Assembly (NCBI RefSeq): GCF_963921235.1
Contig: NC_086107.1
Span: forward strand, 94,552,001 to 94,616,000
Length of the DNA stretch: 64,000 bases
Direction: 5' to 3'
From: Mobula hypostoma
Lineage: Eukaryota
How positions within the stretch are numbered: position 1 is the first letter of the stretch; each line of letters opens with the position of its first letter. Made by a program: the position numbers and the translations under genes. Positions 140 to 61,039 of this stretch are shown here, one piece after another. Under the pieces are notes generated by a model. That model did no database searches. It worked only from the letters and a program-made list of their open reading frames with translations, and had not been told where the DNA came from.

Positions 140-385
140 GAACCAACATCTCCTATCAAATTCATTCTTCTTCAGCTCTTTCCCTCTTCCACCTATCCCC
201 TCCCAGCTTCTCACTTTATCCATACTCCCCCACCCATCTACTCTCCCCCTCGCCTGGTCTCACCCGTCTCCTGCCAGCTTGTACTCCTTCCCCTCCACCC
301 ACCTTCATATTCTGACTTCTTCCCCCTTCTTTTCCAGTGCTGATGGAGGGTCTCAGCTGAGTTCCTCCAGCATTTTGTGTGCGTT
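140..385 (+). mobile_element. Penelope-like element (PLE) 3' terminal-repeat fragment
   Basis: Pyrimidine-rich tract, then a decayed ctgatg..gggtctc motif and gagttcctccagcattttgtgtg. The same terminus is attached to GIY-YIG-coding fragments at 1115-1765 and 19125-20850. Confidence 0.7.
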
Positions 386-1114
386 GTGCAAATCTAAATG
401 AGCTTTCCTCTAATCATTCCAAACAACATTTCTTCCCCACCCCACCCCCACAAATGGGACTAGACTGTGAAGACCAGTGAACTATTCAACCATGCAAGAC
501 ATCACGACCACGACCACCAAGGGACTGAATCCTGAGCTCCAGGGGCGAAGTACGTGGAGTGCTCCAATTTCCTCAAACGTCCCAAGGAAATTCAGGTTGG
601 GTGGATGAATTGGCCACTGTAAGTTACCCCCGCTCTTGTGTGTAGGTGAGTGGTGGCACCTTGGAAGAGTTATTGAGAATGTGAGGAGAATGATACATGG
701 GATTATTGTAGGATTGGTCTAAGCGTGTGGTTGACAGTAGAACAAAGAAACACAATAGAAGCAATGCAGTGTTTTTCATTGATTCTATTGAATTTCTTTG
801 TTCTACTGTGAATGCCTGCAAGAAAATGAATCTCAGGATAGAATATAGTGGCAAATATGAAAATAAATTTACCTTGTACTCTCTGCCACAATCCAGGCCT
901 CATTGTTTATGAAGCACCAGTAGTGTCATACTGCTGGCTTTTTAAACTTGTCATAAATGCACCTTATGCTAAATGTCAATCTTCTGGAATATATTTTATT
1001 ATTTGTGGTAATATTACTTCATGTGTTGTATGTAAGATGCTTGTATTGTATTGTGCACCTTGGCCCGGAGGAATGTTGTTTCATTCGGTCGCTTACATGT
1101 ATATGGTTGAATGA

Positions 1115-1765
1115 CAGTAAACACACACAGAATGCTGGAGGAACTCAACAGGTCAGGCACCATGTATAGAAATTAATAGATAGTCCATGTTTCAGGCAGA
1201 GACCCTTCTTCAGGACTGAGAAGGAAGGGGAAAGACACCAGAAATAAAAGGTGGGGGTGGGGGGAGGGGAAGGAGGCTAGCTGGAAGGTGATAGGCAAAG
1301 CCAGGTGGATGGGAAAGGTCAAGGGCCGGAGAAGAAGGAATCCATTATGAAGAGAGTGGACCTTAGGAGGAAGGGACCCAGGAGGAAGTGACAGGCAGGT
1401 GAGAAGAAGTAAAAGGTCAGAGTGGGGAATAGATGGGGGGGTGAGGGAAGAATTTGTTTACCAGAAGGAAAAATCGATATTCATGCCATCAGGTACCCAG
1501 ATGGAACATACTGTTACTCCCCCACTCTGAGGGTGGCCTCATCATAGCACAAGAGGAGACTGTGGACCAACATGTCAGAACAGGAATGGGAATTAAAACG
1601 CTTGGCCACCAGGAAGTCCCACTTGTGGCGGATGGTGCAGAGGTGCTCAACAAAGCAGCCCCCCCCCCCAATTTAGGACGGGTCTCACCAACGTAGAGCA
1701 GGCCACACCGGACTCAATAGATGACCCGAGCAGAGTCACAGGTGAAGTGTCACCTCACCCGGAAA
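1115..1765 (-). mobile_element. PLE fragment (GIY-YIG C-terminus plus terminal repeat)
   Basis: The minus strand encodes decayed GLLYVGET..RF.EHL, HFNS and EATLR motifs, followed by the shared terminal repeat. Confidence 0.75.
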
Positions 1766-2204
1766 CTTGAACTTGACCCTGACTTACATCGATGGCCAGC
1801 ATGGACAATGCGACGAAGGGCCGGTCTCTGTGCTGCCTCTTCCTCGCTCTCGCCCTGTGTAACTGCTTCCCTCTTCACCCTTAGCACACTCAGCTCCCCG
1901 CCTGGACTTATCGCTCCCTTGATTATCATTCCATTTTACAGTGACCACGTGAAGTAAGCTGCCTCAGAGAGCAAGGAGACAGACTGAGAAAGTAGGGTGG
2001 GGGGGGGTCCCTCTTCTGTTAAGCTTCATAATAACAACTTGCTTTCATTACAGAATTGGTATTCGATCATTATAGTCACGTGTACCAGAGTGCAAAGCTT
2101 GTCTTGCCTACTGTTTATTCAGATCCATTCACCGCACAATGAACTGAATTAGTAATAGAAAACATTCCATCAACTCCTCTCCCATGACCACAAGAAACTC
2201 CTCT

Positions 2205-4370: not shown

Positions 4371-4509
4371 TAAAACTCCCCAAAATGCTTCTCAGTCAAG
4401 TAAAATAAGCTGTTAATATTGACATTTGCTTAACGGAGAATGCCTGTTTAATGTGAGGAAGCTGACGCACAGGCAGCCTCCACACAGTCCATAATAAATT
4501 GGGGTCAGG

Positions 4510-4750: not shown

Positions 4751-5109
4751 AAGATTGCCAACATCAGTTTTAAGGAACGCCTTAAGTAGAGGAATGAAAA
4801 GGCATAGAAGTGTTTCAGAACAGAAGTCCTAATGAAGGGTCTCGGCCTGAAACGACGACTGTTTATTCTTCTCCATTGATGCTACCTCGCCTGCCGAGTT
4901 CCTCCAGCTTTTTGTGTGTGTTGTTTTGGATTTCCAGCATTTGCAGATTTTCTCATGTTTCAGGACAGAGTTTCAGAGCCTGAAGCACCGCTATTGACAG
5001 CTAATAGTGGGGCATTTAAATCTGGGGACAAGGAAGAGGCCAGACTTAGAGAAACACAGATATTGTAGAAAGTCTAAGAGTTCAAAATTCAAAGTTTTCT
5101 AAAAAATTT

Positions 5110-5380: not shown

Positions 5381-6218
5381 CCCTTGCAGATTTTATTATC
5401 AAAGTACATACATGTCACCGTACAACACCGACAAAATGCTGGAGCAACTCAGCAGGTCAGGCAGCACCCATGGAAGTGAATACACAGTCGATGTTCTGAG
5501 CCAGGACCCTTCATCAGGACCGTAACCATATACTTCCCTGAGATTCATTTTGCAGGCATTCGCAGTAGAACAAATAAATGAAAAACCAATCAATGAAAAA
5601 CTATACACAAAAATCAATGAAAAACCATACACAAAGAAGGGTAACCAACCAACATGGAAATACAAAAAAAAATAATAATATACTGTGAATATGAGTTGCA
5701 TTGAATTGAATTGAATTGACTTTATTGCTTACATCCTTCATATTCATGAGGAGTAAAAACCTTTACATCTCCATCTAGATGTGCAATTTATAATAAATAG
5801 TATGTACAACAGGACAGTCAATATAACATAGAAACACAGTTGTGTCTGCATGAGTTAAGCAGTCTGACGGCCTGCTGGAAAAAGCTGTACCCGGAGCCTG
5901 TTGATTCTGGCTTTTATGCTGTGGTACTGTTTCCCAGATGGTAGCAGCTGGAACAGTTTGTGGTTAGGGAGTCCATAGGTCAGTTACTCATACAGGTTCA
6001 GGAGTGAGGAGAACGCAGAGATAGGGACGAGGGCGAGTATGCAGAGAAATTTGTAAAGGAGGAATTTAAAAGGCTAGCAAGTCTCAAGAGTTATGTCCAG
6101 CCAAGGAACTCAGTGTCGCTCATACCCACCCAAGGAGTCATTTCAAACTTCAAATACCCAGTTCTGTTCTGACAGAAAGCAGTACTGTATGTTCCTAATT
6201 TCAGAATTAGGGGCATGA

Positions 6219-6480: not shown

Positions 6481-6924
6481 AACACATTTTTTTTAAAACA
6501 CATTTCCAATGCAAGAAACTCTTTACCTCTAAGCCAGCTCAGGAATATACAATTGTAACGAGACCATAAGACATAGAAGCTAAATTAGGCCTGTAAAATC
6601 ACCATACTGCTTTTGTGCTGAAAATCACTCTTACTTGCAACCTCAGTGAAATTACTTCTGCAGGATTTCTATGTTCCTGTGGCTTCAAAGTGATTTTTGA
6701 ATAGGTGGAATGGAATAGTTTTGGTTCATCATTGTCACATGAACCACGATACAGTGAGAAGATTCTCTTGCATACCGTTCATACAGATCAGATCACTACA
6801 CAGTTCACCAAGCTAGAGAAAGGTAAAACAATTACCAGAATGCAGAATAAAGTATAACAGCAGTGCAGGGCAACAATAAAGAAAGATTTGCTTTATAGAA
6901 ACACAAAGTGAAATGCATTAACAA

Positions 6925-7100
6925 GAGAAAACCCTCAGACGCTGGAAATCTGAGCAACACACACAAACTGCTGGAGGAACTCAGCAGGCCAGGCAGCATC
7001 TATGGAAAAGAGTACAGGGTCTCGGCCTGAAACATCAACTGTACTTTTTTTTTACATAGATGCCGCCTGGGCTGCTGAGTTCCTCCAGCATTTTGCGTGC
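6925..7100. repeat. Fold-back (inverted) PLE terminal repeat
   Basis: About 6958-7018 is the reverse complement of about 7039-7099. Confidence 0.8.
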
Positions 7101-8344
7101 ATTGAAGTGAAACGCATTGTTTTGCATCAATGGCCAACGCACAACACAGTCCGAGGATGTCCTAGGGGCAGCCGGCAAGTGTCACCATGCTTCCGGTGCC
7201 AACCACAGCACGCCAACAATTTACCATCCCGTACGTCATTGGGTGGCATGACGGCGTAGTGCTTACCACAAAGCTTGACGGCACCGGCTGTAAGATCAGG
7301 GTTCGATTCCCGCCACTGTCTGTAAGGAGTTTGCACACTCTCCCCGCGAGCGCGTGGGTCTCCTCCCACGTTCCAGAGATGTACGGGTAGGGTTAGCGAG
7401 TTGCTGGCGCCAGAAGTGTGGTGACGTTTGTGGGCCGCCCAGCAAAACCCTCACTGATTTGACTTGATGCAAGTGACAAACGTCACTACCTATATCACGT
7501 AACAAATAAAGCTCCTCTTTGCTCTTTAAAATCTTTGGAAATATGGGAGGAAACTCGAGCACCCGAGCGGTCACAGGGAGAACGTGCAAACTCCCTAAAG
7601 GCAGCGGTGGGAACTGAACCCCCATTTGCCGGTACTGTAAGGGATTATACTGACTGCTACGCATAAGGTGCAAGGTCATAACGATGTAGATTGTGAGGTA
7701 AGGAGTCCACCTTATTGTGCTCGGGAACTGTTCAACAGTGAGGTGGAAGCTGGTCTTCAATGTCTGCTTCCAAGATCTCTCCTGAGCCGACGAAGTGATG
7801 CTGGCAGAGGTAGCCACTCACTCTGTGATTCCAGTTCCATCCAATAGATTTTTAACCCATCTCCCCAAATCTGTGGAGCTTATTCCATAGTCTGCTATTA
7901 ATAAAATGGTCAACCAGTTAGTGACGTCAGCAGCCCCAATTAGGGGCAAGTCCCTGTGTGCACTTCCAGCCATTCCGTCCCACCCCAGAAGGCGAGCTTC
8001 TGTGGGCAGTGTGAGCTCAGTACTGTATCACCACTAGGTAAGCAGGTACCGGTCTTCACAGAATCACAGAAAGGTGACAATACAAAGCCAGTCATTCAGT
8101 TTGCAGAATCAGTGTCAGCATACCAACTGATACAAGAGCAATCCAGCAAGTCCTGAAATTCATTCTCCTCTCAAAGGAAATTTATTATCAAAGTACCTAT
8201 ACTTCATTTTCTTGCAGGCATTCACAGGACACGCACAGAGAAACAAAAGAGTCAATGAGAAACCACACACTAACAAAGACCGGCAAACAACCAATGTGGA
8301 AAAGGCAAACTTTGCAAATGCAAATAGAAGTATATGAATAACAA

Positions 8345-8930
8345 ACACAAAATAGTCTGCAGGTGCTGGAAATCCAGAGTAGCACACACAGAATGCTGGA
8401 GGAACTCAGCAGCCTCAGGCAGCATCCATGAAAATGCATCCACAGTCAACGTTTCGGGCTGAGACCCTTCTCCAGGACTGGAAAGGAAGGGGGAAGATGC
8501 CAGAATGAAAGGGTGGGGGGGAGAGGCAGGAAGGTGCTAGAAGGTAATAGGTGAAGCCGGGAGGGAGGTAAAGGCAAAGAGCTGGAGAGGAAGGAATCTG
8601 GTAGGAGAGTAGAATGGACCATAAGAGAAAGGGAAGAAGGAGGATCACCGGGGGACGCGATAGGTAGGTGAGGAGAGGCAAGAGGCCAGAATGGGGATCG
8701 GAAGAAGGGGGAAGGGGTAGAACTTTTTTTAATCCGGAAGAAGAAATCGATATTCATGCCATCAAGCTGAAGGCTACCCAGACAGTGTTGCTCCTCCAGC
8801 CTGAGGGTGGCCTCATCATGGCACAAGGAGGTCACGGTCCGACATGCCGGAATGGGATCGGAATTAAAATGTTTGGCCACTAGGAAGTTCCGCTTTAGGC
8901 GGATGGAGCACAGGTGCTTGACCTCCGCTC
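8345..8930 (-). mobile_element. PLE fragment with near-intact hammerhead motif (8443-8480)
   Basis: ORF 8446-8949 has VAKHFNS..CHDEATLRLEEQH. Minus strand reads cagtc ctggagaa gggtctcagccc gaaac gtt gactg. Confidence 0.8.
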
Positions 8931-10079
8931 CGTAACAAATAAATAACACAGAGTCCTTTGAAGTGAGTTTACAGGTTGTGGAATCAGTACAGTGTTGAGG
9001 TGAGTGATGTTCTCCACACTGGTTCAGGAGCCTGTCGGTTAAAAGGCAATAACTACTGCTGAACCTAGTAGTGTGGGATCCTGCACCTTCTTTCTGAAGG
9101 CAACAGCGAGGAGAGACGATGGCCTAGATGGTGGAGGTCCTTTAAGATGGACGCTGCTTTCTTGTGGCAGTGCTCCTTGCGGGAGTGCTCAATGGTGGGG
9201 AGGGCTTTGCCTGTGATGGACTGGGCTGTATCCACCATTTATGCAGCTCCCCTCTGAGAACTTTGATTGATCCTGCCTTCACTATTCCCCACTGCAGATT
9301 CTATCCACCAGGCATGTCAAGAAGTTTTCTTTTCAAACTATCACCTCAGGTTCAGATTCATTTATTTATCACACGTACCTCAAAGCTGGAGGTTGGAGGC
9401 CTGATGTCTGAGAGCCTTGGGCCAAGGACTGGGTGATGGGAGGCCTGGAGACACCCTGTCCTAAGGACGTACCCCAAGGACGTGCTGAGGGCAACCCATG
9501 GAGTCACCAAACAGCATCAATTTAGTAAGCCCACCATGTTCTGCAGAACAACACAAACAGCAACAACAACAACAGGTAAACAAGCTTCTTCCCCACCCTC
9601 CCCACTCACAGTCAGGCCTCTAACCCTGGTACAGGGTGCCTCTGGGCCTCCAGCTTCCAGTCCCTGGCCCGGACCTGTTGAGCTCCACTTCAACCTTTGT
9701 GCCTTGACCTCCGGACTTGCTGACATGATGGGTGGGGAGGAACCAGCCCTTCTACATTTGGTAAATGTCATTATAAGACGTATTAGTGGAGGTAAATCTG
9801 GCTAGGGACTTATCAGTGCACGGAAAATGCTGGAAGAACTCAAGCATCACCTATGGAGAGAAATAAACACTCGACGTTTCGAGCCAAGACCCTGTATCAG
9901 GACTGGAAAGGAGGGGAACGGAAGCCAATTGCCTTCATTCTCGCTGGTTCTTGATAAATCCATCAATGGGAACATCTTTCTTCTATCAGCTCCGTCTCTG
10001 TCCCTGCATGGCTTCAACTACCTTTAATCAAGCCACCTAAATTATGACTGGAGGAGAGAATTGCCTGTGACCATCAGAA

Positions 10080-10600
10080 GAAACACCTGTCAGTCCATGG
10101 CCTCCTTTACTGCTATGAAGAGGCCACCCTCAGGCTGGAAGAGTAACACCTCATATTCCTCCAACCTGATGACATGAGGGTAAATTTCTCGAACTTCCGG
10201 TTATTCCTTCTCTTTCCCACTTCTCTCTTTTTTCCAGTCAAAGGACTGGTTTCCCTCTCAGTCCTTCTCTCCTCCTCACCTGCCCATCACCTCCCACTGG
10301 TTTCCCTGCCCCTTCCTTTTCTATGCTCCACTATCCACTCCTGTCAGATTCCTTCTTCTTCTGCCCTTTACCTCTTCCACCTGTCTCCTCCCAGCTTCTT
10401 ACTTCACCCTTCCTCCCCCCACCCACCCAGCTTCCCCCTCACCTGCCACCTTGTACTCTTCCCCTCCTCCTACCATCTTACTCTGGCTCCTTCCCCCAGT
10501 CCTGATGAAGCGTCTCGGCTGAAACTTCAGCTGTTCATTCCCCCTCCACGGATGCTGTCTGACCTGCCGAGTTCCTTCAGCATCTTGTGGGGGTTGCATG
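10080..10600 (+). mobile_element. PLE 3' fragment
   Basis: EATLRLEE remnant, pyrimidine tract and a decayed hammerhead motif at about 10497-10533. Confidence 0.75.
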
Positions 10601-12545: not shown

Positions 12546-13373
12546 GGGCATAATCCAGGCTATCAAGGGCTCAGATGGTTTAAATTTAATGCCATAAACA
12601 TGCATGCACTCGATATAAATACCATCAGATCATTTTTATAGCAGCACAGTACATTACAGACATAAATTAGTATAAACTTAACACAGATTATACATAGCTG
12701 AAAACCAGAAACATCACTAAACTCCCTCACCATCAGAATCAAGTGAAATATGTCATTAAATTTTGCAGCAGCAGTACATTGCAATGCAATACAATAAAAA
12801 GTGTGTCTTCAGGCTCCTGCATCTCCTCCTTGTTGGTAGCAATGAGAAGAGTCCTGAGTCCTGGCATGTCCTGGGTGGTGGAGGTCCTTAATGACGGATA
12901 CCCCATTTTGAAGGTATCCTCTTTTGAAGATGTCTTCGATGCTGGGGAGGCTAGTGGCCGTGATGGAACTGGCTTGAGTTTGCAACTTTCTGCAGCTTTG
13001 TCCTTTCCTCTATACCAAATGGTGATGCAACAAGATAGAATACACCCTTGGAGATTTTGGTGACTCCTCTAAGTCCTAATGAAACAGAGCCACTGGCATG
13101 TCTTCTTCATGATTCCATCAATGTGGTGGGCCCAGGATAGATCTTCAGAGGTGCTGACACCCAGGAACTTAAAACTGCTCACTGTTTCCAGGTGTTCCCT
13201 TGACTTTCCCTTTCTGACATCTACGATCACACTCCTTGGTCGTACTGACGTTGAGTGCAAGGTTGTTCTACCACTCAACCAGCTGACCTATCCCACTCCT
13301 GTACGCCTCCTCATCACCACCTGAAATTCTGCCAATAACGGTTGTGTCATCAGCAAGTTTATAGATTTCAGCT

Positions 13374-14027
13374 GTTGGAGGCTACCCAGACAGAATATAT
13401 GGTGTTGTTCCTCCAACCTGAGTGTGGCCTCATCATGACAGTGGAGGAGGCCATGGATGGACATATCAGAATGGGAATGGGAAGTGGAATTAAAATGGGT
13501 GGCCATTGGACGATCCCGCTTTTTCTAGTGGGTGCTCTGTGAAGCGGTCTCCCAATCTTCATCGAGTCTCACCAATATACAGGAGGCCACACCAGGAGCA
13601 CTGGACACATTATATGACCTCAACAGACTCTCAGGTGAAGTGTCACCTCACCTGGAAGGACTGTTTGAGGCCCCAAATGGTAGTGAGGGAGGAGGTGTAG
13701 GGGCAGGTGTAGCACTTGAAAGGATAAGTGCCAGGAGGGAGATCAGTGGGGAAGGACGAATGGACGAGGGAGCCATGTAGGGAGCGATCCCTGCGGAAAG
13801 CAGAAAGTTGGGGGGTGGGGAGGAAAAGATGTTCTTGGTGGTGGGATCCTGTTGGAGGTGATGGAAGTTGCAGAGAATTATGTGCTGGATGTGGAGGCTG
13901 GTGAGGTGGTAGGTGAGGACAAGAGGAACCCTATCCCTGGTAGGGTGACAGGAGGATGGGGTGAGGGCAGACATGCACAAAATGGAAGAGATGACATTGA
14001 GGGAAGCGTTGATGGTGGAAGAAGGAT
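13374..14027 (-). mobile_element. PLE ORF fragment (RT C-terminal linker plus GIY-YIG endonuclease)
   Basis: DRVPLVLTYH..HLQQDPTT (ORF 13648-13980), CS.CGLLYIGET, and ATHFNS..EATLRLEEQH (ORF 13288-13506). Confidence 0.85.
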
Positions 14028-14154
14028 CTCTTTTTGCACTATTTATCTTTCATATATTCTTATCATATTTTATAGTAACTTTTATGTTTTCACAAATTTG
14101 TGTTTTCCCATCATAAATTTCACAACACCTGCCAGTAATAATAAACCTGATTCA

Positions 14155-14790: not shown

Positions 14791-16421
14791 CAGAGATTTA
14801 TTACCTTGACTTGGATGAACTGAAGTTTGTCATTTTGCAGTGGCGGTACAGACCAAAGACATCAAGTAAGAATAAATTACAACAATATATAAAATAGTGA
14901 AGATAATAATAAGGAGGAATTGTTATGACAGAGGAGATATCAGATACTGGAACAACATACAAAGGGCTGAAGGACTCAGTGGGTCAGGCAGCATCTGTGG
15001 AGGGAAATGCTCTTCACTCACATGCTGAATCTCCTTAAACCATTGAGAAAGTAGAAAATTATAAGCGCAAAAGATTATGCAGATGCTGGAGATCTTGAGC
15101 TACACACACATAAAATGCTGGAGGAATTCAACATCGGGAAGCATCTGTGCAGCTTTCTCCAACTTCTACTAATTCCTCACTCTCCCTCCTCCTCTCGTTT
15201 TCTATTCCTCATTCTGGTTACCCTCTCACTCCTTCTCTTCTCCTCACCTGTGGTTCCCCCTCCTCCCTCCCTTTCTTCCATGGTTCACTGCCTTCTTCAG
15301 CTCTTTCCGTCTTCACCTCCCCCTCCCCTCACCTGGTCCTATCTCTCACCTCCTCCACCTTCTTATTCCAGCTTCTTTCTCCTTCCTTCTCAGTCCTCAT
15401 GAAGGGTCACACATCCCAAAACAGCATCGTACTAACTGCTGCACTACTGTGGCTCTGCTGATAGTTTTGTTAATCTGCCACATTCAAGGGTTTTGTGCAC
15501 CGAGCACTTTGTATTAGGATTCCTTTTAAAATTACGTGATCTTTCCTGTTGTCTTATCTCACTAATGACTGTTGTTTCCCCATAACCATTCCCAATTCTT
15601 TTCATACCTATTCCCTTCTACAAAGTTTCCCTGTTCGTCCCACTTCGGAATGTATTTCAAACTTGTTATATGGGTGGCACCTTCTGGTTCCATGACAGAT
15701 CGTTGACCTAAAACACGAACTCTTAATCTCTTTCCACAGATTGCTTGACACAGAACACCACAGCAAAGGACCTTTTAACCTACTTTAAGATATACCTAAC
15801 CCTTCCCTTCCACCTAGCCCTCCATTTTTCCTTCAGCCATACGCTGATCTAAGAGTCTCTTAAAATGTTCATCTTGTATCCACATCTACCACCACTCCTG
15901 CCAGCGTGTTCCACACTTGGCCTTTAAAAAACCTCTTACAACTCACCCACCCCCTACTTTCCTCCAATCACCTTAAAATTAGCCATTTCAACCCTGGGAG
16001 AAAGACACTGGCTGTCCATTCTAGTTACATCTCTTAACATCTTGTACACCTCTATCAAGTCACCTCTCATCCTCCTTCGCTCCAAAGAAAAGCCCTAGTT
16101 CACTCAACCTTTCCTCATAAGACATGCTCTCTAATCCAGGCAGCATCCTGATAAATCTCCTCTGCACCCTCTCTAAAGTTTCCATGTTTTCCTATAATGA
16201 GGTGACCAGAACCGAACTCCAAGTGTGGTCTAATCAGTGTTTTATAGAGCGGCAACATTATCTTGAGGCACTGGAACTCAATCCCCCAACTAATGAAGGC
16301 CAACACACTATATTCTTAACCAAGCTATCAACTTGCGTGGCAACTTTGAGGGATTTATGGCTGTGGATCCCAAAAACCCTGTTTCCCTCAACACTGCTAA
16401 GAATCCTGCCATCAACCCTGT

Positions 16422-17154: not shown

Positions 17155-18130
17155 AGAGATGTAAGAGACTGCAGATGCTGAAATCTGGAGCAACACACAA
17201 AATGCTGGAGGAACTCAGCAGGTCAGGCAGCATCTGTAGAAGGAAATGGACAGTCAATGTTTCAGGTCGAGACCTTTCATCCAGATTCCAAGATAAAGGG
17301 GGGATAAGGAATATAAAGAGGTGGAGGAGAGGAATTACAAACAAGGGAAAATCTGCAGATGCTGGAAATCTGAGCAACACACACAAAATGCTGGAGGAAC
17401 ACAACAGGCCAGGCAGCATCTATGGAAAAGAAGTATAATCGATGTTTCGGGCTGAAACCCTTCGGCAGGACTGGAGAAAAATAGCTAAGCAGTAGACTTA
17501 AAAGGTAGGGGGAGGGGAGAGAGAAACACAAGGTGATAGGTGAAGCTTGGAAGGGAGGGACCATGAAGAGCTGGGAGGGTGATTGGTGAAAGAGATACAG
17601 GGCTGGAGAAGGGGGAGTCTGATAGAAGAGGACAGAAGGCCATGGAAGAAAGGATGGGGGAGAAGCACCAGAGGGAGGCAATGGGTGGGAAAGGAGATAA
17701 AGTGAGAGAGGGAAAAGGGGATGGGGAATGGTGAGGGGGAGGGGGGCATTACCAGAAATTTAAGTAATCAGTGTTCATGCCATCAGGTTGGAGGCAACCC
17801 AGACGGAATATAAGGTGATGTTCCTCCAACCTGAGTGTGGCCTCATCGCAACAGGAGTAAATCTACTCCTCAGCTCTTTTTCTCCAGCTGAAGGGTTTCG
17901 GCCTGAAACATTGACTATTTTTTTTTCCATAGACGTTGCCTGGCCTGCTGAGTTCCTCCAGCATTTTGTGTGTGTTTGGGAGGAAAGGAGCTGGCAGGTG
18001 ATGGGTAGATCCAGGTGGGGAGGGATGATAGGCAGATAGAGGGGGAGAGTGGGATTTGCAATAGGTGGGCTGACAAATGGTGGAGTTGAATGGACAGGAA
18101 GTTGGAGCTGTGGGCAGATGAGACCCAGTG
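17155..18130. mobile_element. Cluster of PLE terminal repeats in mixed orientation
   Basis: Three copies of the gatgctgcctg..gagttcctccagcattttgtgtg terminus plus an EATLRLEEH remnant. Confidence 0.8.
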
Positions 18131-19124
18131 CACCATGAGGATAGAGCTGCTGTAACAATTGTCAAGAATGTCTGTGGGGCCTCAAAGAGGATGGAGATTA
18201 TTTTAGATACGGAAGTGACTCATAAACATCTTATTCACATGACATGTGCTCTTATAGCAAGGTCAGCAGTTTGTTTTCTGTGCAGTAATTCACCAGATGT
18301 AAAGGTCACTGGCAAGATGCCAGTTTATTGTGAGTTCCTAATAGCTGGTCAAGAGACAAACACATTGAAGGACCACTCACTGTGATTTGAAACTGGCTAC
18401 TTCTGCCTCTCACTCATGTGATGTTGGCTCCGTTTTCCCCTCTCTGCTGGCGAATGTGCATCAGAGGGAAACTCCAGGAATCATAAGAAAATTGGGTTAC
18501 GTTCGTAAAGTGGTCAAACACAGCGTCATACAAACTGCAAAGGCCAATGGGGGAAATGAACCAATGGAGATGGCTTAGAGCCTTCTCAAGAAATAGGGCA
18601 GACATTAGATCAGGGAAGTGTTAAAAGTGCAAGGCCTAGCTTGCTGGAACAGAGATGAGATTCAAAATTGCTCATTTGTCATTCCTGAGTACAGGAGCAT
18701 AAAGAACAAAATGATTGTTACTCTAGATTTGGAGCAGAAAAAAATACAATAAGCATAAAGAATACACAATATAAAAGCAATCCTATAAAACAATGTACAA
18801 GTAACCTATATACATGGAGTGTATGTACATGAAGTGAAGCTGGGTGATATGTTTGCAGTGGTACTGGAGTGGGTTGGATTGATGGGTGGAGGTGTTGATC
18901 ACCATGATGGCTTGAGGAAAGCAATTGGCTTTTGAGTCTAGTCATCTTGGCATGGATGCTGCGTAGCTTCCTCCCTGATGGGAGTGAGACCGACAGTCTA
19001 TGAGCAGGGTGGGTGAGATCCTTCATGATATTGCAGGCCTTTTTTTCCAGCACCTTTCTGTATATGTCCTTGATGGCAGGTTGGCTGGGGTCAGTGAGGC
19101 ATTGGGCAATTTTAATTCCCTCAG

Positions 19125-27580: not shown

Positions 27581-27589
27581 CGATGAACA

Positions 27590-39597: not shown

Positions 39598-40439
39598 GGT
39601 GCTTCATTTTGGTAGGACTAATCAAAATAGGACATACGTGGTAAATGGTGGGACATTGAAGAATGCAGTAGAACAGAGGGATCTGGGAATAATGGTGCAT
39701 AGTTCCCTGAAGGTGGAATCTCATGTGGATAGGCTGGTGAAGAAAGCTTTTGGTATGCTGGCCTTTATAAATCAGAGCATTGAGTATACGAGTTGGGATG
39801 TAATGTTGAAATTGTACAAGGCATTGGTGAGGCCAAATCTGGAGTATTGTGTACAGTTTTGGTCACCAAATTATAGGAAAGATGTCAACAAAATAGAGAG
39901 AGTACAGAGAAGATTTACTAGAATGTTGCCTGGGTTTCATCTCCTAAGTTACAGAGAAAAGTTGAACAAGTTGGGTCTTTATCCTTTGGAACGTAGAAGG
40001 TTGAGGGGGGACTTGATAGAGGTATTTAAAATTATAAGGGGGATAGATAGAGTTGACGTGGATAGGCTTTTTCCATTGAGAGTGGGGAAGATTCAAACAA
40101 GAGGACATGAGTTGAAAGTTAAAGGGCAAAAGTTTAGGGGCAACATGAGGGGGAGCTTCTTTACTCAGAGAGTGGTAGCTGTGTGGAACGAGCTTCCAGC
40201 AGAAGTAGTTGAGGCAGGTTCGATGTTGTCGTTTAAAGTTAAATTGGACAGCTGTATGGACAGGAAAGGAATGGAGGGTTATGGGCTAAGTGCGGGGCGG
40301 TGGGACTAGGTGAGAGTAAGAGTTCGGCATGGACTAGAAGGGCCGAGATAGCCTGTTTCCGTGCTGTAATTGTTATGTGGTTATATGGTTATATATAACG
40401 ACAGACAAACAACCAATGAGCAAAACTAGACAAACTGGG

Positions 40440-42050: not shown

Positions 42051-42243
42051 TCTACATAGATTTGCCACTGCCTTTGCTCTAATTGTGCATAATTTATGTT
42101 TAATTTTCATTTTCCTTGTGAACTCTGTGCCTGTGATGCGGCTGCAAGGAAGTTTTTCATTGCACCTGTGTGCACGTGGACTTGTGCAGATGCCAAATTA
42201 ACTTGACTTTGACTAAGATGAGCCAGCTTCAGACTCTTCAGTG

Positions 42244-42278
42244 AGTCCTGATGAAGGTTTTGACTTGAAACGTCGACT
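42244..42278 (+). ncRNA. Minimal type I hammerhead ribozyme motif, core intact (PLE-associated)
   Basis: agtc-CTGATGA-aggt(tttg)actt-GAAAC-GTC-gact. Stem I agtc/gact, 4-bp stem II, palindromic ACGT in place of a stem III loop, GUC cleavage triplet. Confidence 0.75.
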
Positions 42279-42439
42279 GTTTATTCCTCTCCATAGATGC
42301 TGCCTGACCTGCTGGGTTCCTCCAGCATTTTCTGTTTGTATTGCTCTGGATTTCCAGCATCTGCAGAATCTCTTGTGTTTATGTTCATACAGAGTTGTAG
42401 TATAGGAATTATCTTTTCATCTCCCTTTATTAACTTTCT

Positions 42440-42975: not shown

Positions 42976-43075
42976 TTGTTCCTCAGTCGTGTACACAAGA
43001 GATTCTGCAGATGCTGGGAATCGAGAGCAACACAAATAGAATACTGGAGGAACTCAGCAGATCAGGCAGCATCAA

Positions 43076-43114
43076 CAGTCGACGTTTCAGGCAGAGACCA
43101 TTCATCAGGAGCTG
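43076..43114 (-). ncRNA. Minimal hammerhead motif, core intact but stems weakened
   Basis: Minus strand reads cagctc-CTGATGA-atggtctctgcct-GAAAC-GTC-gactg. Confidence 0.6.
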
Positions 43115-43231
43115 TAAACACAAACAAGAGAAAATCTGGAGACACTGGAAATCCGAGAAACACAAGCAAAATGCTGGAGGAACTCAGCAGGCCAGGCAGC
43201 ATCTGTGGAAAAGAGTACGGGCCGAGACCCC

Positions 43232-43305
43232 TCATCAGGAGCTGTATGTTCATCATCTTCATCAGTATTCATCAGGAGCTGTATGTTCATCATCTTCATC
43301 AGTAT
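43232..43305 (+). repeat. Perfect 37-bp tandem duplication
   Basis: tcatcaggagctgtatgttcatcatcttcatcagtat occurs twice. Confidence 0.9.
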
Positions 43306-47633: not shown

Positions 47634-48079
47634 CTCTTGAGGCAGTGCCTACCGTTGGTGGGGAGGGGGGCGAGCCGGTGATGCTTTGGGCTGAGTCCAC
47701 CATTCTCCACAGCTTCTTTGATCAAGCTTTTGGCCGCTTGCCCTGAGATCTCTTTGTGTGGCTCGACCTCAGGTGTTGTTTGGCAATGTTTTGTGAGGAC
47801 TCTTTGGCATTATAAAAGCAGCGAAAGTACAAAATTGTGTTGCTGGGGCTGCACTCCTGAGTGAGATTAACTTCAGGGCAACAAGGTAGTACGGTAAAAC
47901 CAGTGTGAAACTCGGAAGGAGGAGAAGACGAGGGAAAGTCTGAATCAGAATCAACTTTATTATCACTGACTTAATTTACATGAAACTTGTTGTTTTGCAG
48001 CAGCAGTAGAGTGCCAAGACAAAAGTTGCTATTAATTATTAAATTAAGTTGTGCAATAAAAGGAATAATGAGGTCTTAA

Positions 48080-48970
48080 ACATGAGATTCTGCAGATGTT
48101 GGAGATCCAGAGCAACACACACACACACAAAATGCTGGAGAACACTCAACATGTCTTTGGAGAGAAATAAACAGTTGACGTTTCGGGCCGAGACCCTTCA
48201 TCCGGACTGGAAAAGAAGTGGGAAGATGTGTTCACAAACAAGAGAGGATCTGCAGATGCTGGAAATTCAAGCAACACACACACACACACACACACAACGC
48301 TAGAGGAACTGACTAGACCAGGCAGCATCTATGGAAATAAGTACAGTTGACATTTTGGGATGAGACCATTTGGCAGGACAGGAGAAAAAATGATGAGGAG
48401 TAGAGTTAAAAGTTGGGGGGTAGGGGAAAGAGAAACACAAGGTAATGGGTGAAACCGGGAGGGGGAGGGATGAAGTAAATAGCTGGGAAGTTGATTGGTG
48501 AAAGAGATACAAGGCTGGAGAAGGGGGAATCTGATAGGTGGGGATAGAAGCCATAGAAGAAAGAAAAGGGAGGGGAGGAGCACTAGAGGGAGGCGATGGG
48601 CAAGCAAGGAGATAAGGTGAGAGAGGGAAAAGGGGATGAGGAATGATGAAGTGTGGGCATTACCGGAAGTTTGAGAAATTGATGTTCATGCCATCAGTTT
48701 GGAGGCTACCCAAACGGAATATAAGGTGTTGTTCCTTCAGCAAGAGTGTGGCCTCATCACAACAGTAGAGGAGGCCATGGATTGACATATCAGAATAGGA
48801 ATGGGAGGTGGAATTAAAACGGGTGGCCACTGGGAGATTCTACTTTTTCTGGCGGACGGAGCATAGATGCTTGGTGAGATGGTCTCCCAATCCACGTTAG
48901 CTCTCACCCATATACAGCAGGCCACACCGGGAGTACTGGACTCAGTATATGATCCTGACAGACTCACAGG
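48080..48970 (-). mobile_element. PLE fragment with tandem terminal repeats
   Basis: GIY-YIG remnant CGLLYMGES..LGDH, two terminal repeats, and a hammerhead motif at 48172-48209 with one core change (CGGATGA). Confidence 0.85.
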
Positions 48971-50437
48971 AAGATGTGTTCATGGACCGTTCAGAAATCT
49001 GATGGCGGCGGGGAATGAGATGTTCCTGAATAATTGAGGGTGGGTCTTCAGACTCCTGTGTCTCCTCCCCGAGGGAAGTAACGAGAAGAGGGCATGTTAC
49101 CATGATGGTAAGGGTTGTTAAAGGCAGATTGCCACCTTCTTGAGACATCTGCTCTTGAAGATATCCTGAAATGTAGGGAGGGTTATGCGCGAGTCTACAA
49201 CACTCTGCGATCCTGTGTGTTGGAGCCTTTGTAGAAGGCTGTCATTGCCACCATTCAGAATGCTCAGTCATTTGTGACAATTCCCAACGGCGTAGAGCCA
49301 CTGACCTGCCTTTTCTGTGAGTAAACCCGGGAAAAATGCTCTGAGACGCTAAACCAGGAACTTGAAGCTGCTCACCCTTTCCAGCACTGACCCATCAGTG
49401 AGGAACCGGTATGCCTTCTCCCATCTTCCCCCTCCCGAAGTCCACAATCAGTTCCTTGGTCTTGGTCTTACTGGTGCTGAGCACGAGGCTGTTGTTGCAA
49501 CACCACTCAGCCAAACAATCGATCTCACTTGTTGCCTGGGAAAGACAGGGAATCACATTCCAAGTTTTTGTTCACAATCTTGAAAGGGCTGGGTGGGGTA
49601 GATAAAACAAGACTTGTGAAACTTTGTACTGAATAATCAGCTGGAAAACAAACTCAAGCTTCTACAATGCTCTGTGGTTAAATTGTTCCTTATTGATGGT
49701 AGTATGACCCTCCCCTTTAAGGGCAGATCTCTTTGATCATTTTCTCCATCTGTTCCTGCAGACAGATTTCAATCAGCCTAATTAAAAGGGAAGTGTTTAA
49801 TAAGCATCAGCTATTTGTGGGCTGTGCTACTGAGTGTTGGCAGGTCCCTGGAACTGTCCGAGCCAAACCCAGTCTCATTTTGTCTAGCGTCTGTACCCAT
49901 GGTGTCTAGATCATAGAGACGGGCAGCACAGAATCAGGCCCTTCAGCCCATCATTCCGAAGATGATGGCCTGCAAGCCACATTTACTCTCATTGGTAAAT
50001 TGGTTTAAAGTTCTCACCTGTACTGAGATACAGTGAAAGACCTCTCTTGTGTATTGTTCATACAGATCAAATCATAACAATGGTACATTGAGGTAGAACA
50101 AGGTAAAGCAATAACAGAACATAGAATAAAGTGTTGCAGTTTCAGAGAAAGTGTTCCCAACCATTTTTTTTATCCATGGACTCCTACCATTAACTGAGGG
50201 GTCCATGGACTGCAGGTTGGGAACCCCTGCAGCCTGAACGTCTCCTATCCTTGTACCTGTTTTAGTACCTTTTAAATGTCATTAATGTACCTGCCTCAGC
50301 CACTTGCTCTGGCAGCCCATTCCATAGGCAGACCAAATTTTGCCTGGCTGTGGTACATATTAAATGTCTCCCCTCTCACCCCAAACCAGTGCCCTCGATT
50401 TCTCAGCTCTGGGGAAAAAGACTGTGCCTTCACCGTG

Positions 50438-54272: not shown

Positions 54273-54274
54273 TA

Positions 54275-54890: not shown

Positions 54891-54950
54891 TGATACACCA
54901 CCTTCTAGGAATTCTAAACCTGTTTGACCTGAAACAATCGATAGATGACT

Positions 54951-55165
54951 AGCAACACACACAAGGTGCTGGTGGAACGCAGCAGGCCAGGCAGCATCTC
55001 TGGGAAGAGGTGTAGTCGATGTTTCAGGCCGAGACCCTTCGTCAGGACTCGGCCTGAAACTTCGACTGTACCTCTTCCCATAGATGCTGCCTGGCCTACT
55101 GCGTTCCACCAGCATTTTGTGTGTGTTGCTTGAATTTCCAGCATCTGCAGATTTCTTCGTGTTTG
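54951..55165. repeat. Fold-back PLE repeat with hammerhead sequence at the turn
   Basis: Arms at about 54951-55033 and 55048-55130. Similar structures at 55485-55715 and 60171-60287. Confidence 0.85.
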
Positions 55166-56074
55166 CATTGATAGACGACTTGTTTGGTTTCAAACTGTAT
55201 CTGAACAAAGGTATTTTTTTCTGTGGAAGACGATAGCCTGTGGAGCTGTGGAGGGAGGTGCTGACGGAACAGGTTCAGTTGCATTGTGTGGTCCACTGGA
55301 AGGACACAGACATTTCTGCTTAACAGAGGGTTCAACAAAATGACAAAGCCTCTCACGGCTTTTCCATACTAACTGCATTCCTGTCAGGTCCTTTATTTCA
55401 TTACTGAGCTGGCCAGCAGGGGGACCAAGGTGCTTGTTAAAGCACCAAACTAGGTATAAAGTCACCCGGTTAACCAAAGTTTCTTAAACAAGAGATTCTG
55501 CAGATACTGGAAATCCAGAGTAACGCACATAAAATGATGGAGGAACTCAGCAGGCCAGCAACATCTACAGAGAGGAGTAAAGTGTCGACATTTCGGATTG
55601 AAATCTTTCATCAGGACCTGTCAACCAGTTGTGAAAGACCCCGGCCCAAAACGTCGACTGTTTATTTCTCTCTAAAGATGCTGCCTGATATTCTGAGCAT
55701 TTTGCGTGTGTTGCCAATGTTCCTTGTCCATTCACTTGCTAATGAAATCAGCTTGTTGTGACACTGACCAATGCATCAAAACGGCAAGAATGTGATAAGG
55801 AAAAGTAAAAAAGCAAAATTACAGATTAGCTTTATTTGTCACATGTACACTGAAACATAGAGTGAAATGTGTCGTTTGCATCAACAACCAATACAATCCG
55901 AGGATGTGCTGGGGGCAGCCCACAAGTGTCACCACGCTTCCAGCTCCAACGTAGCGTGCCCATAGCTTACTAATCCTAACCCGTACATCTTTGGAATGTA
56001 GGAGGAATCCCGTGCACCCCGAGGAAAAACGTGGCCACAGGGAAAACCTTAAAGACAGCAGCAGGAATTGAACA

Positions 56075-56869: not shown

Positions 56870-59205
56870 GATAGTGTCGGGCTTAGAGGGCATGAGCTGT
56901 AAGAGAGGTTGGACAAAACTTGGGTTGTTTTCTCTAGAATGTAATCTCTAGAACGGAATAATCAGCCAGAATCTTCGTCTCAAGGTCCAAATCTCTAATA
57001 CCAGAGGGCATACATTTAAGGTGAAAGGGGGAAGGGTCAAAGGAGATGTGAGGGGCACATGTTTTACACAACGAGGGGTGGGTGCCTGGAATGCACTGCC
57101 AGGGTTGGTAGTGGAGGCAGATGCAACAGAGGTATTTAAGGGGTTCTTGGATAGACACGTGATATGCAAAGATCGGAGGGATGTTTACATTGGGCAGGCA
57201 GAAGGGGTTTGTTTGCTTAGACATTTAGTTACCATTTGCCTCAACATCATGAGCTGAAGGGCCTGTGCCTGTGCTGTGCTGTCACAGAGCATCACTGAAT
57301 GGATTTCGGCCCATCTAGTCCGTGCTGACCTATTTTTTGACTAGTCCCATCTACCTGTGCCTGGAATATATCCCCCCATAATCTCTCCCATCCGTGTTCC
57401 CTTTGCAAACTTCTCTTAAGACTTCTCTGTAGTACTATGGGCAGTTTTGGGCTCCTTATTTAAGAAAGGATGTGCTGACGTTGGAGAGGGTTCAGAGAAA
57501 GTTCACTAGAATGATTCCGGGAATGAGAGGGTTAACATATGAGGAACGTTTGTCCGCTCTTGGACTGTATTCCTTGGAGTTTAGAAGAATGAGGGGGGAC
57601 CTCATAGAAACATTTCGAATGTTGAAAGGCATGGACAGAGTGGGTGTGGCAAAATTGTTTCCCATATGGTGGGGGAGTCTAGTACGAGAGGGCATGACTT
57701 AAGGATTGAAGGGCGCCCATTCAGAACAGAAATGTGAAAAAAAATTTTTAGCCAGAGGGTGGTGAATCTATGGAATTTGTTGCCACGGGCGGCAGTGGAG
57801 GCCAAGTCATTGGGTGTATTTAAGGCAGAGATTGATAGGTATCTGAGTAGCCAGGGCATCAAAGGTTATAGTGAGAAGGCAGGGGAGTGGGACTAAATGG
57901 GAGAATGGATCAGCTCATGATAAAATGGCGGAGCAGACTGGATGGGCCAAATGGCCGACTTCTGCTCCTTTGTCTTATGGTATAAATGTACTTGTAGTGG
58001 TGTTGATCACTTCCACTGGCAGCTAGCTCCAGTCTCTGAGTGAAGAAGCTCCACCTCGGGTTTCCCTTAAACATTTCACCCTTCACCCTAAACTAGGGTT
58101 GCCAACTTTCTCACTCCCAAGTAAGGGACAAAAGTAGCAGTCAAATACGGGACACTTGTATTTACCCCGAGAAAGACTACCATGACCATGAAACCTTGTG
58201 CGGGCACCTGTGTGCGCATGCGTGCCGTGCACATACATGACGTGCGCATGCGTGAACATGCCTATTTTTTTCCATAAATCGGTTTTGGCTTAATCTTCCT
58301 GATTCTGTTAAGTGAAACTACACTGTACATACATTATTTCTACTTTATATAGTCTGTGTATTTATCATATCATTCCTGCTTTTACTATATGTTAGTGTTA
58401 TTTTAGGTTTTATGTGTTATTTGGTATGATTTGATAGGTTATTTTTTGGGTCTGGGAACGCTCAAAAATTTTTCCCATATAAATTAATGGTAATTGCTTC
58501 TTCGCTTTACGCCATTTTGGCTTACGAACGGTTTCATAGGAACGCTCTACCTTAGCGGGGGGAATACGGGTCAAGTGCAGTCCCATATGGGACAAACCAA
58601 TTTAGCCTAATATATGGGATGTCCCGGCTAATACAGGACAGTTGGCAACCCTACCCTAAACCTATGACCTCTAGTTGTTGTCCCACCCAACCTCTGTGGA
58701 AAAAGCCTGCTTGTATTTACCCTATCCGTACCTCTCATAATTTTGTATACCCTCGTTCTTTCACACTCCAGGGAATAAAGTTCTAAGCTATTCAGTCTTT
58801 CCTTATAACTCAGGACCTCAAGCCCCAGCAACATTCTTGTAAATTTTCCCTGTACTCTTTCAAGATCATTGACATCCTTCCTGTCGGTAGGTGACCAAGA
58901 CTGCACACAATACTCCAAAATAGGTCTCACCAACATATTATACAACTTCAACATAACATTTTAACTCCTGGATTCAATGCCCTAATCTAGGAAGGCCAAT
59001 GTACCGAAAGTTCTCTTTACGACCCTATCTACTCGTGACTGTACTTTCAAGGAATTATGGATTTGTATTCCCAGATCCCTCTGTTCTACCATACTCCTGA
59101 GTGCCCTATCGTTCACTATGTAAGTTCTACCCTGGTTTGTCCTGCCAAAGTGCAGCACCCCACACTTGTCTGCATTAAATTCCATCTACCATTCTTAGCC
59201 CATTT
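56870..59205. mobile_element. Mosaic of CR1 3' fragments in both orientations
   Basis: ORFs 57021-57257 (+), 57472-57702 (+), 58628-58954 (-) and 58982-59185 (-) carry CR1 C-terminal motifs. Confidence 0.85.
58094..58653. mobile_element. hAT-family MITE (560 bp)
   Basis: Perfect 14-bp TIR tagggttgccaact/agttggcaacccta and perfect 8-bp TSD ccctaaac (58086-58093, 58654-58661). Inserted in a CR1. Confidence 0.95.
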
Positions 59206-61039
59206 TTCTGTCCTGTGTTCCAACTCAGTGGGTCAGGCGGTGTCTACAGAGGGAAAAAATATAGACACAGGAGGTACTGCAGATCCTGGAAATCTAGAGC
59301 AATACATACAATGTGCTGGAGGACCTCAGCGGGTCAGGTAGCAACCGTGGTTGGGAATAAACAATTGATGTTTCGGGCCAAGACCCTCCATCAGGGCTGG
59401 AAAGGGAGGAGGGAGAAGTCAGAATAAGAAAGTGGGGGGAGGGGAGGAAGAAGTACAAGATGGCAGGTGATAGGTGAAACCGGGAGAGGGGGACAAATGA
59501 AGTAAAGAGCTGGGAAGTCAACTGGTGAAAGAGATAAATGGCTGGAGAAGGTGGGTATCTGATAGGAGGGGACAGAAGACCAAGGAAGAGAGGGAAGGGG
59601 AGGAGCACCAGAGGGAGGTGATGAGCAAGCAAGGTGAGAAGGTGTGACAGAGGAACAAGAATGGGAAAAATATCTTTACATTTTTCCCTGCAGATGCTGC
59701 CTGACCTCCTGAGTTTTTCCAGCTTCCTGTGTGTTGCTCCAGATTCCAGCATCTGCAGACCGTTCCATAAATCAGAAAAAAAAAACTCTGTCCATCAACA
59801 TGCTGGGGGCTCGTGGTGCCAAACCAATAGATTTGGGACACCAAAGCGGAATAACATCCAACAGTTATTAATATTAATACCCCCACTGCTGATATACAAC
59901 AATGTAATAAATTTTCCAGTGCACATGGTGAGTTTCAAGGGGACTAGAACTAAGTGTCCTCGGTATGGCAACATTACAACCACTTTGCCCTACATAGACA
60001 TTCTTTTGTTTCCATCTTGTTCTTTTTTATATAATTTTGTTCAATTCGTGTTTAATTTGTGTCTTTTTCCCCTATCTGATGCTCTGTGGCCCGTGATGCT
60101 GCTGCAAGTAAATTTTTCGTTGTACCCATGCAGACCCAAGACCTTAAGACATATGAGCAGAATTAGACCAACACACACAAAATACTGGAGGAACTCAGCA
60201 GGCCAGGCAGCATCTACGGAAAAGAGTGAACTTTTTTTCCATAGATGCAGCCTGGCCTGCAGAGTTCCTCCAGCATTTTGTGTGTGTGCTGCTCGGCTTT
60301 CCAGCACCTGCAGATTTTCTCTTGTTTGTGACCAGAATTAGACCATTTATTTAATTATGGCTGATTTATTTTTTCTCTCAACCCCATCCTCCTGCATTCT
60401 CCCCGTCACCTTTGACGTCCTGACTAATTAAGGACTAGTGCCTGCGCATATAACGATAAACTCAAATTTGACCTGTTTTTTTGACAAGTTTTTTTTTCTG
60501 ATTTATGGAACAGATTGCAGATCAGCAGGTCAGGCAGAATTTAAGGGAAGGTGTTGGGGGGGGGAGGAATCGGGGACCCTGCTGTGTGGGAGGGAATGAG
60601 GAAAACACACTACATTGTGCTGAAGGGTGTGCAGGGAAATAGTGAACCATTGGGACCCTCGTTCTCCAGGAAATGCCCTACTACCATTGGGGAGGAGGTA
60701 CAGGAGCCTGAAGGCGCGCACTCAAAGACTCCTGGCTATCACGAGCGGTCCACGGTCTCTGATTGACTGTTATTTATATAATAAAGTCCTCCGGGGAAGT
60801 CAAAGCCCTGGGTGAGCAGCCCCAAGTCCATGTCCGGTGGAGGCCCGATCTGGGGTTAAAGGACTGTGTACGTGTGTGGGTGGGCGGAAGGAAAGGGGGC
60901 TTGTTGTTGCTGTTGTTTTGTTGCTGGCTTGTGCTCTGTGCTGTTTTGCTGAACGTGGTGGGCACGCTATGTGGGTGCCGGAATGTGAGGCGGCTCTTGC
61001 GGGATGCTCGATGGCGCAAACGGCGCATTCCACTGTCAC

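Follow-up and report, generated by a model that had tools for sequence, protein, structure and literature searches.

Worn-out minimal hammerhead motifs of a Penelope-like element in a 64-kb stretch of the Mobula hypostoma genome

A stretch of 64,000 nucleotides (nt) from Mobula hypostoma (contig NC_086107.1 of assembly GCF_963921235.1, positions 94,552,001 to 94,616,000; referred to as the window), with a GC content of 45% and a CpG observed/expected ratio of 0.33, contains many short motifs that resemble hammerhead ribozymes without a helix III loop. This raises the question of which element spread them and whether any of them could still cut RNA. An initial annotation, made from the sequence alone, had attributed about 20 such motifs, dispersed over positions 334..59400, to Penelope-like elements (PLEs). 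Our analysis confirmed them as a family of worn-out minimal hammerhead relics of a PLE, a kind of sequence that has already been described. Very probably, they are dead copies of a minimal type-I hammerhead in the pseudo-long terminal repeat (pLTR) of a Neptune-type Penelope-like retrotransposon.

Census and anatomy of the motif

The pattern CTGATGA-N13-GAAAC, with at most one mismatch, was matched 10 times in the window, against 0.5 matches expected and three in the richest shuffled sequence. When the 38-nt consensus of the initial annotation was employed in a tiled local alignment, 25 sites reached the threshold score of at least 34, compared to none in the reversed window. The proposed number of motifs was thereby borne out, and all eight coordinates given as examples as well as both ends of the range (335-357 and 59362-59399) were recovered. 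One site, at 15391-15422, is doubtful and was omitted from the per-copy letter table, which holds 24 rows. With one repeat arm as query, nhmmer recovered 30 arm copies. Sequence related to this PLE family occupies 8,506 bp (13.3%) of the window, and herein lies the value of the finding for annotation, as it explains about 13% of the stretch.

The consensus consists, in order, of the helix I strand CAGUC, the CUGAUGA box, an unpaired A, helix II (GGGU-CUCG-GCCC), GAAA, C-G, U, C17 and GACUG. It held up in part: the motif was found as described and 835 exact 37-mers of it occur genome-wide (the assembly comprises 3.48 Gb in 200 contigs), but position 11.1 has a majority of T (14/24) rather than C in the window copies, and the 835 copies are a minor form compared to 32,520 identical 37-nt copies that read CUGACGA with U at 11.1. 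The motif combines CUGANGA and GAAA boxes with a 4-bp helix II, an open helix I of 5 bp and, in place of helix III, a loop-less ACGU. All letters of the invariant core (C3 U4 G5 A6 N7 G8 A9, G12 A13 A14, A15.1-U16.1, and a position 17 other than G) are kept in the consensus and in both sets of exact genomic copies. One unpaired nucleotide stands between A9 and position 10.1; it is A in family 1, to which the window copies belong (22/23 window cells), and A, T, C or G in three further families found in the genome (families 2-4). In the consensus, ACGU is followed directly by C17, leaving no helix III loop, and positions 15.2-16.2 are palindromic. The pair 10.1-11.1 is G-C in the older consensus and in 25/35 instances across families, and G-U in the dominant variant. 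Schistosoma Sm-alpha and newt satellite 2 are examples of canonical type-I hammerheads. With that type (Rfam Hammerhead_1), the motif shares the catalytic core and the open helix I topology, whereas the helix III hairpin and the loop-loop contacts have no counterpart here.

The designation as a type-I minimal hammerhead with a palindromic ACGU and no helix III loop agrees both with the sequence and with the minimal hammerhead ribozymes (min-HHRs) of metazoan PLEs (Cervera and de la Peña 2014, PMC4209133). That study reports a helix I of 4-5 bp and, beyond its search descriptor, an extra base before 10.1, a 10.1-11.1 pair and palindromic positions 15.2-16.2; judged by its letters, the consensus motif carries each of these features, with G-U as the 10.1-11.1 pair of the dominant variant. 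The likeness covers the boxes, the unpaired base, the lack of a helix III loop and the length of helix I, and extends to the position in a PLE terminal repeat and to the occurrence as mostly solitary, truncated copies with some opposite-strand pairs. In contrast, the published motifs have a helix II of 6-8 bp, as against 4 bp here and 6 bp in families 2-4, the 10.1-11.1 pair of the dominant variant is G-U, and the copy number is far above the approximately 4,000 of coelacanth and 9,000 of Xenopus. Cartilaginous fishes are not named in the text parts of PMC4209133 that were consulted.

The Penelope-like carrier in the window and in the genome

The attribution to PLE ends was corroborated by coding remnants upstream, common 3′ ends and tails. 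Endonuclease or reverse transcriptase remnants were detected 300-350 nt upstream of seven hammerheads (1182, 8443, 10497, 17437, 19232, 48344 and neighbours) in tblastn searches with frames from the genomic locus L012. The copies share a common 3′ end and differ in their 5′ reach, which extends up to about 550 nt before the hammerhead. A tail of about 37 nt is present on 18 of the 28 3′ ends, and the other 10 stop before it. Three same-strand tandem pairs (17473/17288, 43240/43110 and 48379/48209) have their members 130-186 nt apart, and head-to-head inverted pairs with differing junctions were found at four loci; only one arm carries the tail in each of the three inverted pairs that were scored. 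In their structure, these tandems, inverted pairs and tails match the signature of PLEs, in which tandems are partial, a truncated partner stands inverted and one end bears a tail of 30-40 nt (Craig 2021, PMC8557442); the tail is explained by two adjacent start sites of reverse transcription (Frangieh 2024, PMC11167929). The loci of the window are as follows.

335..357 (+): only the 5′ half of a hammerhead relic, with A9>G; sequence after loop 2 deleted
1080..1790 (-): 5′-truncated PLE end, 3′ end without tail; endonuclease-coding remnant 1517-1779
1182-1218 (-): hammerhead relic in the preceding copy; C17>G, C11.1>T
4825..4960 (+): PLE 3′ end with tail; hammerhead relic 4825-4861 with G5>A and U16.1>A, dead core
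5424..5522 (-): PLE 3′ end without tail; hammerhead relic 5485-5522 with G12>A and A13>G
6920..7099 (both strands): head-to-head inverted PLE pair; 6920-7017 (-) with tail, 7016-7099 (+) without tail
7016-7041 (+): hammerhead 3′ half, the sole remainder in that pair
8340..8930 (-): 5′-truncated PLE end with tail; endonuclease remnant 8785-8922, hammerhead relic 8443-8480 (A6>G)
9824..9916 (-): PLE fragment; hammerhead relic 9868-9905 with G8>A and A9>C
10085..10595 (+): 5′-truncated PLE end without tail; endonuclease remnant 10063-10152
10497-10533 (+): hammerhead relic in the preceding copy; the core letters survive, helices I and II are disrupted
13367..14097 (-): coding remnant of a PLE, matching residues 528-625 (reverse transcriptase) and 147-289 (endonuclease) of the reference frame; no hammerhead detected downstream of the coding remnant 13402-14097 (-)
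15391..15422 (+): doubtful partial motif match, score 36.5, not counted
17163..17857 (-): two tandem PLE ends, each with tail; endonuclease remnant 17778-17853
17437-17473 and 17251-17287 (-): hammerhead relics in that tandem, the first with A6>C, the second with an insertion in the CUGAUGA box
17858..17978 (+): PLE 3′ end without tail; hammerhead relic 17883-17916, CUGAUGA box lost
19120..20830 (-): longest copy of the window, 1.7 kb, tail present; hammerhead relic 19232-19269 with C17>G
19603-20822 (-): remnants of reverse transcriptase and endonuclease, 34-38% identical to the reference frames
21538..21642 (-): PLE end; hammerhead relic 21604-21641, core letters intact, ACGU>ACAU, helix II weakened
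39276..39386 (-): PLE 3′ end with tail, truncated inside the hammerhead, starting near G12
39391..39601 (+): young-subfamily type of PLE end; hammerhead relic 39515-39546 with CUGACGA, core intact, helix I deleted
42236..42383 (+): PLE end with tail; hammerhead relic 42244-42279 with core, GUC and ACGU intact, helix I of 4 bp, one helix II G deleted, A-U at 10.1-11.1 if helix II is re-registered
42993..43240 (-): two tandem PLE ends, both with tails; hammerheads 43076-43114 (intact in core, GUC and ACGU; U.U at 10.1-11.1; helix I with a bulge of 1 nt) and 43216-43244 (5′ half only)
48078..48980 (-): two tandem PLE ends, both with tails; endonuclease remnant 48723-48971
48172-48209 and 48344-48381 (-): hammerhead relics in that tandem, the second dead; the first is the closest to the consensus, with U4>G, which kills the core, and G1.1>A
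54947..55165 (both strands): inverted pair, head to head, with 86-nt arms of 91% complementarity separated by 8 nt; minus arm without tail, with relic 55014-55049 at the hairpin apex (core intact, ACAU); plus arm with tail, hammerhead 3′ half only (55045-55068)
55488..55711 (both strands): second inverted pair; hammerheads 55584-55617 (-), with core intact, A.C at 10.1-11.1 and helix I of 3 bp, and 55626-55660 (+), with the CUGAUGA box lost
59267..59664 (-): 5′-truncated PLE end with tail; hammerhead relic 59362-59399 with A9>G
60169..60334 (both strands): two PLE 3′ ends in inverted orientation, both cut short downstream of the hammerhead, with no motif remaining; minus arm without tail, plus arm with tail

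Some of the inverted pairs are near-perfect hairpins, such as 54951-55130 with its 86-nt arms, where the CUGACGA box lies in the apical loop, and weakly microRNA (miRNA)-like scores were obtained. This would suit a chance hammerhead look-alike in a short interspersed element (SINE) or in a hairpin repeat of the miniature inverted-repeat transposable element (MITE) type that was multiplied by transposition, the more so as all window copies belong to one family and their number is not independent evidence. Against such an origin, the majority of copies consist of one arm only, with PLE coding remnants upstream of it, and the junctions of the hairpins differ, so that these are separate events. 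As a side observation, the inverted pair at 60187-60271 folds as a long hairpin, for which the Rfam families mir-3192 (E 0.12) and mir-505 (E 0.37) scored far below gathering; hairpin-shaped inverted pairs of this sort could be mis-annotated as MITEs or as miRNA genes or precursors.

Retrozymes of animals without long terminal repeats (non-LTR retrozymes) were reportedly described by Cervera and de la Peña in 2020. Could the window copies be such short non-autonomous tandem units, cycling through circular RNA? The three same-strand pairs 130-186 nt apart would be in line with this, and a 2026 preprint (Li et al., 10.64898/2026.07.22.740005) derives retrozymes, whose type-I hammerheads are related to those of PLEs, from PLE pLTRs; the genome itself has a true tandem (120 nt x 2.9) of another hammerhead family at locus L018. 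However, the pairs in the window are bounded by the PLE 3′ end and tail and not by a cleavage site, their members differ in 5′ truncation point and sequence, and seven copies carry coding remnants. The window copies are truncated PLE ends scattered along the sequence, and Tandem Repeats Finder returned no head-to-tail hammerhead array in the window. The retrozyme reading was rejected as very improbable. At L018:755-1105, each of the 2.9 tandem units contains a family-3 hammerhead, an arrangement that resembles a non-LTR retrozyme array.

The retrotransposon reading was pursued in complete elements elsewhere in the genome. The L012 frame of 645 aa, used as query, gave 68 scored matches among 136,456 first-look candidates; eight loci were fetched, and seven were examined for frames and motifs. 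Frames of 785-787 aa without stops are present in 4/7 loci, with YIDD, a CX4CxxC linker and GIY..YIG with inner cysteines. YIDD stands at 431-433 in 7/7 loci, and DKG at residues 190-192 in 3/7, including two of the four stop-free frames. At L057 and L058, same-strand hammerheads 3,515-3,517 nt apart flank a frame of the 787-aa type, the downstream one about 300 nt past the frame end and the upstream one 854 nt before the frame start, and L012 holds a 717-nt tandem. The form adjoining uninterrupted frames is the CUGACGA / U11.1 variant. The CX2-5CxxC linker motif is common to Neptune and Nematis elements (PMC8557442) and points to the Neptune (or Nematis) type, a placement made from motifs alone.

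Compared to the Neptune elements with endonuclease (EN+; Arkhipova 2006 as cited in Craig et al. 2021, PMC8557442), the family is alike in DKG, YIDD, the CX2-5CxxC linker, GIY-YIG with inner cysteines and the single frame, as well as in partial tandems, the inverted 5′-truncated partner and the 30-40 nt tail. With the Poseidon element PAc of Anolis carolinensis (PMC11167929), it has in common the two adjacent start sites and a hammerhead in the repeat between successive frames. However, the PAc frame starts inside the hammerhead, unlike the 854-nt spacing at L057 and L058, and cleavage of PAc has been shown to be protein-assisted.

According to the available reports, PLEs occur in all vertebrate lineages (PMC4350176), all known PLEs carry hammerheads, usually minimal ones (PMC6155905), and one chondrichthyan is listed with both PLEs and retrozymes in the 2026 preprint. 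No description of this family was found in the literature searched, and the supplementary tables of PMC4209133 and of the preprint may list cartilaginous-fish motifs. The initial annotation thus read the element correctly. It belongs to a known kind and stands out chiefly by its scale, being unusually numerous in this genome.

In the living Neptune-type element, the hammerhead lies about 300 nt after the stop of the reverse transcriptase/GIY-YIG endonuclease frame of about 787 aa; its distance from the 3′ end is 104 nt in forms lacking the tail and about 140 nt in forms that have it. Target-primed reverse transcription begins at either of two neighbouring sites, hence the presence or lack of a tail, and often stops early, hence insertions that are 5′-truncated ends, usually still with the hammerhead. 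New copies land beside old ones, as tandems, or come with an inverted partner. As the literature suggests, two same-strand hammerheads in one transcript may pair via ACGU to form helix III and cleave after GUC, so that a unit-length RNA would be released; the protein of the element probably assists in this. Every copy in the window has since mutated into what is very probably inert sequence.

Copy numbers, further families and selection

Within two mismatches, the 33-nt core of the motif has 72,574 copies genome-wide, compared to none in the control. The 32,520 identical copies point to a very large and recent burst of a PLE subfamily. Many of them are located less than 100 nt from an inverted twin.

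A gapped descriptor returned a further 459 motifs in the genome, against 48 in the control, among them at least three further hammerhead families (L016-L031) with 6-bp helices II of unrelated sequence, one of them also with a different helix I. When family-1 frames were searched with tblastn against the 2-kb loci of families 2-4, nothing relevant was obtained. Covariation of helices I and II, the lack of which the initial annotation had named as a refutation, is present: across the four families, 259/315 helix cells pair (82%) in 35 instances, which are not independent within one family, while slid partners pair in 120/315 (38%), 65/280 (23%) and 86/280 (31%) of cells. Helix II pairs 2-4 show 3-4 pair types each.

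Conservation within family 1 is centred on the motif. The majority sequences of two subfamilies, one built from seven genomic loci and the other from eight window copies, are identical over the 37-nt motif, their upstream flanks barely align and their downstream parts are approximately 80% alike. Further, in Logan contigs (DNA or RNA) from four runs with four organism labels, aligned at a likeness of at least 80%, matches end in large numbers exactly at both edges of the motif, and the run contigs read the consensus letter at all three places where one L012 hammerhead departs from it. Taken as comparisons of sequence, these observations are evidence for selection on the motif in master copies.

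The same data bear on the look-alike origin in a SINE or MITE-like hairpin, since helices covary in independent families and the motif is the best conserved block between subfamilies. Being contradicted by this covariation, by the coding remnants and by the full-length flanked frames, that origin was rejected and is hardly credible. The Neptune-type PLE is retained as the carrier.

Insertion junctions, cleavage and decay

If minimal hammerheads cut the RNA of this element, insertion breakpoints might be expected to carry a trace of it, and the starts of homology were therefore counted around the scissile bond. They amounted to 83 at G16.2, 52 at U16.1, 47 at C17, 279 at G1.1, 106 at A1.2, 92 at C1.3 and 91 at U1.4, with 146 and 169 at the distal control positions k33 and k36, so that the peak of 279 at G1.1 compares to 47-169 at eight other positions. 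Structured classes (helix-I microhomology and small indels) make up 56 of the first 100 G1.1 matches. Inverted dimers of the class CAG|GACTG, joined exactly through the helix I complement, account for 25 of the first 100 of 279. The remainder at G1.1, about 123, is no higher than the distal controls (about 107 and about 128), and the peak was rejected as a cleavage footprint. Hot spots at G1.1 are likewise to be expected from the helix I complement and from the GTCGAC palindrome.

At 47 loci, two PLE arms form a perfect palindrome of 24 nt that is centred on C17|G1.1, the midpoint of the natural GTCGAC. Three palindromes were inspected (L013, L014 and L015): the two with readable flanks, L013 and L014, have target-site duplications of their own, and the second arm of L014 measures 34 nt. 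In another, frequent class of inverted dimers (for example L032, L034 and L035), the first arm spans the entire hammerhead as far as C3, and the helix I complement of 4-5 nt links it to a second arm that begins at G1.1. From these junctions, helix I seems to act as a DNA-level snap-back or microhomology site. That no larger single hammerhead family has been counted so far (with at least 72,574 near-consensus copies, 32,520 of them identical) and that its junctions record ribozyme action is, taken together, a decidedly doubtful proposition. If true, the breaks at the scissile bond and the palindromes would have been left by reverse transcription running off the 5′ end of hammerhead-cleaved RNA, and a trace of PLE minimal hammerhead cleavage in vivo would have been seen for the first time.

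Several results speak against a hammerhead that serves the element by cleavage, or against its assignment. The breakpoint census gave no robust footprint around the scissile bond. Rfam hammerhead models had no match at gathering score in the whole window, nor any at E values up to 10 in the 40-62 kb section and in a pristine genomic copy, which fits a motif without helix III. For the coding frames of genomic copies, the Pfam matches to RVT_1 (E 3.6e-5, 24 bits, cut-off 29.6) and GIY-YIG (E 8.9e-4, 19.9 bits, cut-off 22.6) remained below threshold. In the folding model, the minimum free-energy structure of the monomer (-12.0 kcal/mol) contains helices I and II, and the hammerhead-like structure has -9.6 kcal/mol; nearest-neighbour energies place the symmetric double hammerhead at -18.1 kcal/mol, compared to -24 for two monomers and -32.3 for the best dimer. 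Thermodynamics alone therefore disfavours the active dimer, in line with the weak in vitro cleavage reported for min-HHR motifs (PMC4209133). In the Anolis system, as reported, core mutants do not impair insertion in vitro and no RNA-seq ends were seen at the site (PMC11167929). Finally, the most successful variant, with its 32,520 copies, has G-U instead of the conserved G10.1-C11.1.

The G-U in the dominant lineage is the main point for the view that efficient cleavage is not what is selected, and that the motif is conserved as a cis-element of the PLE with a present-day role other than self-cleavage, the hammerhead likeness being ancestral baggage; candidates are a fold that binds protein and a hairpin in DNA or cDNA aiding strand switching or second-strand priming. 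This view also draws on the unfavourable energy of the double hammerhead, on the many inverted dimers joined exactly through the helix I complement and others at the GTCGAC palindrome (47 loci), and on the unaffected insertion of core mutants in vitro (Frangieh 2024, PMC11167929). Yet the invariant catalytic letters are all kept in four families with different helices, which a mere hairpin would not demand; moreover, the hammerheads of fungal PLEs and the protein-assisted one of Anolis are reported to cleave (PMC4209133, PMC11167929). We consider a non-cleaving cis-element unlikely. For PLE minimal hammerheads, whose in vitro activity is weak, this genome offers a good natural system in which to address a role in transposition and cleavage in vivo: young, identical copies number in the tens of thousands, frames without interruption are present, four hammerhead families reside together, and tandem and inverted junctions abound.

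With regard to the window copies, none of the 24 equals the consensus and none keeps all helices. All invariant core letters are kept in seven (10497+, 21604-, 39515+, 42244+, 43076-, 55014- and 55584-); only 42244+ and 43076- additionally keep GUC, ACGU and a helix I, both without G10.1-C11.1, and no two such copies stand together on one strand. The decay is enriched at CpG sites, as had been proposed: in the eight CpG columns 61/191 cells differ (32%, 49 of them transitions), compared to 90/698 (13%) elsewhere. Given the 32,520-copy variant with U at 11.1, part of the T at this position may go back to a master copy instead of having arisen by decay at the site. The suggestion that a few copies may still cut host transcripts found no support, with 0/24 intact, 7/24 core-keeping and no detectable in vitro cleavage of published monomers; since no copy is intact and such monomers did not detectably cleave, residual cutting of host transcripts by the window copies appears improbable.

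As for the host side, 120 of the 128 stop-to-stop frames of at least 90 aa in the window were searched against Pfam; they gave only domains of long interspersed elements (LINEs), and no host gene was defined. A SNORD88-like C/D box small nucleolar RNA at 25198-25290 (-), with 50.5 bits against a gathering score of 46, is the only Rfam match at gathering score in the window. LINE fragments unrelated to the PLE are located at 2148-2711 (+), 30372-30935 (+), 35093-36934 (+), 37573-38619 (-) and 46228-47721 (-). They carry Exo_endo_phos and RVT_1, and several of their frames match Pfam ALKBH8_N, which probably marks the tail of LINE open reading frame 2 (ORF2) rather than a host gene.

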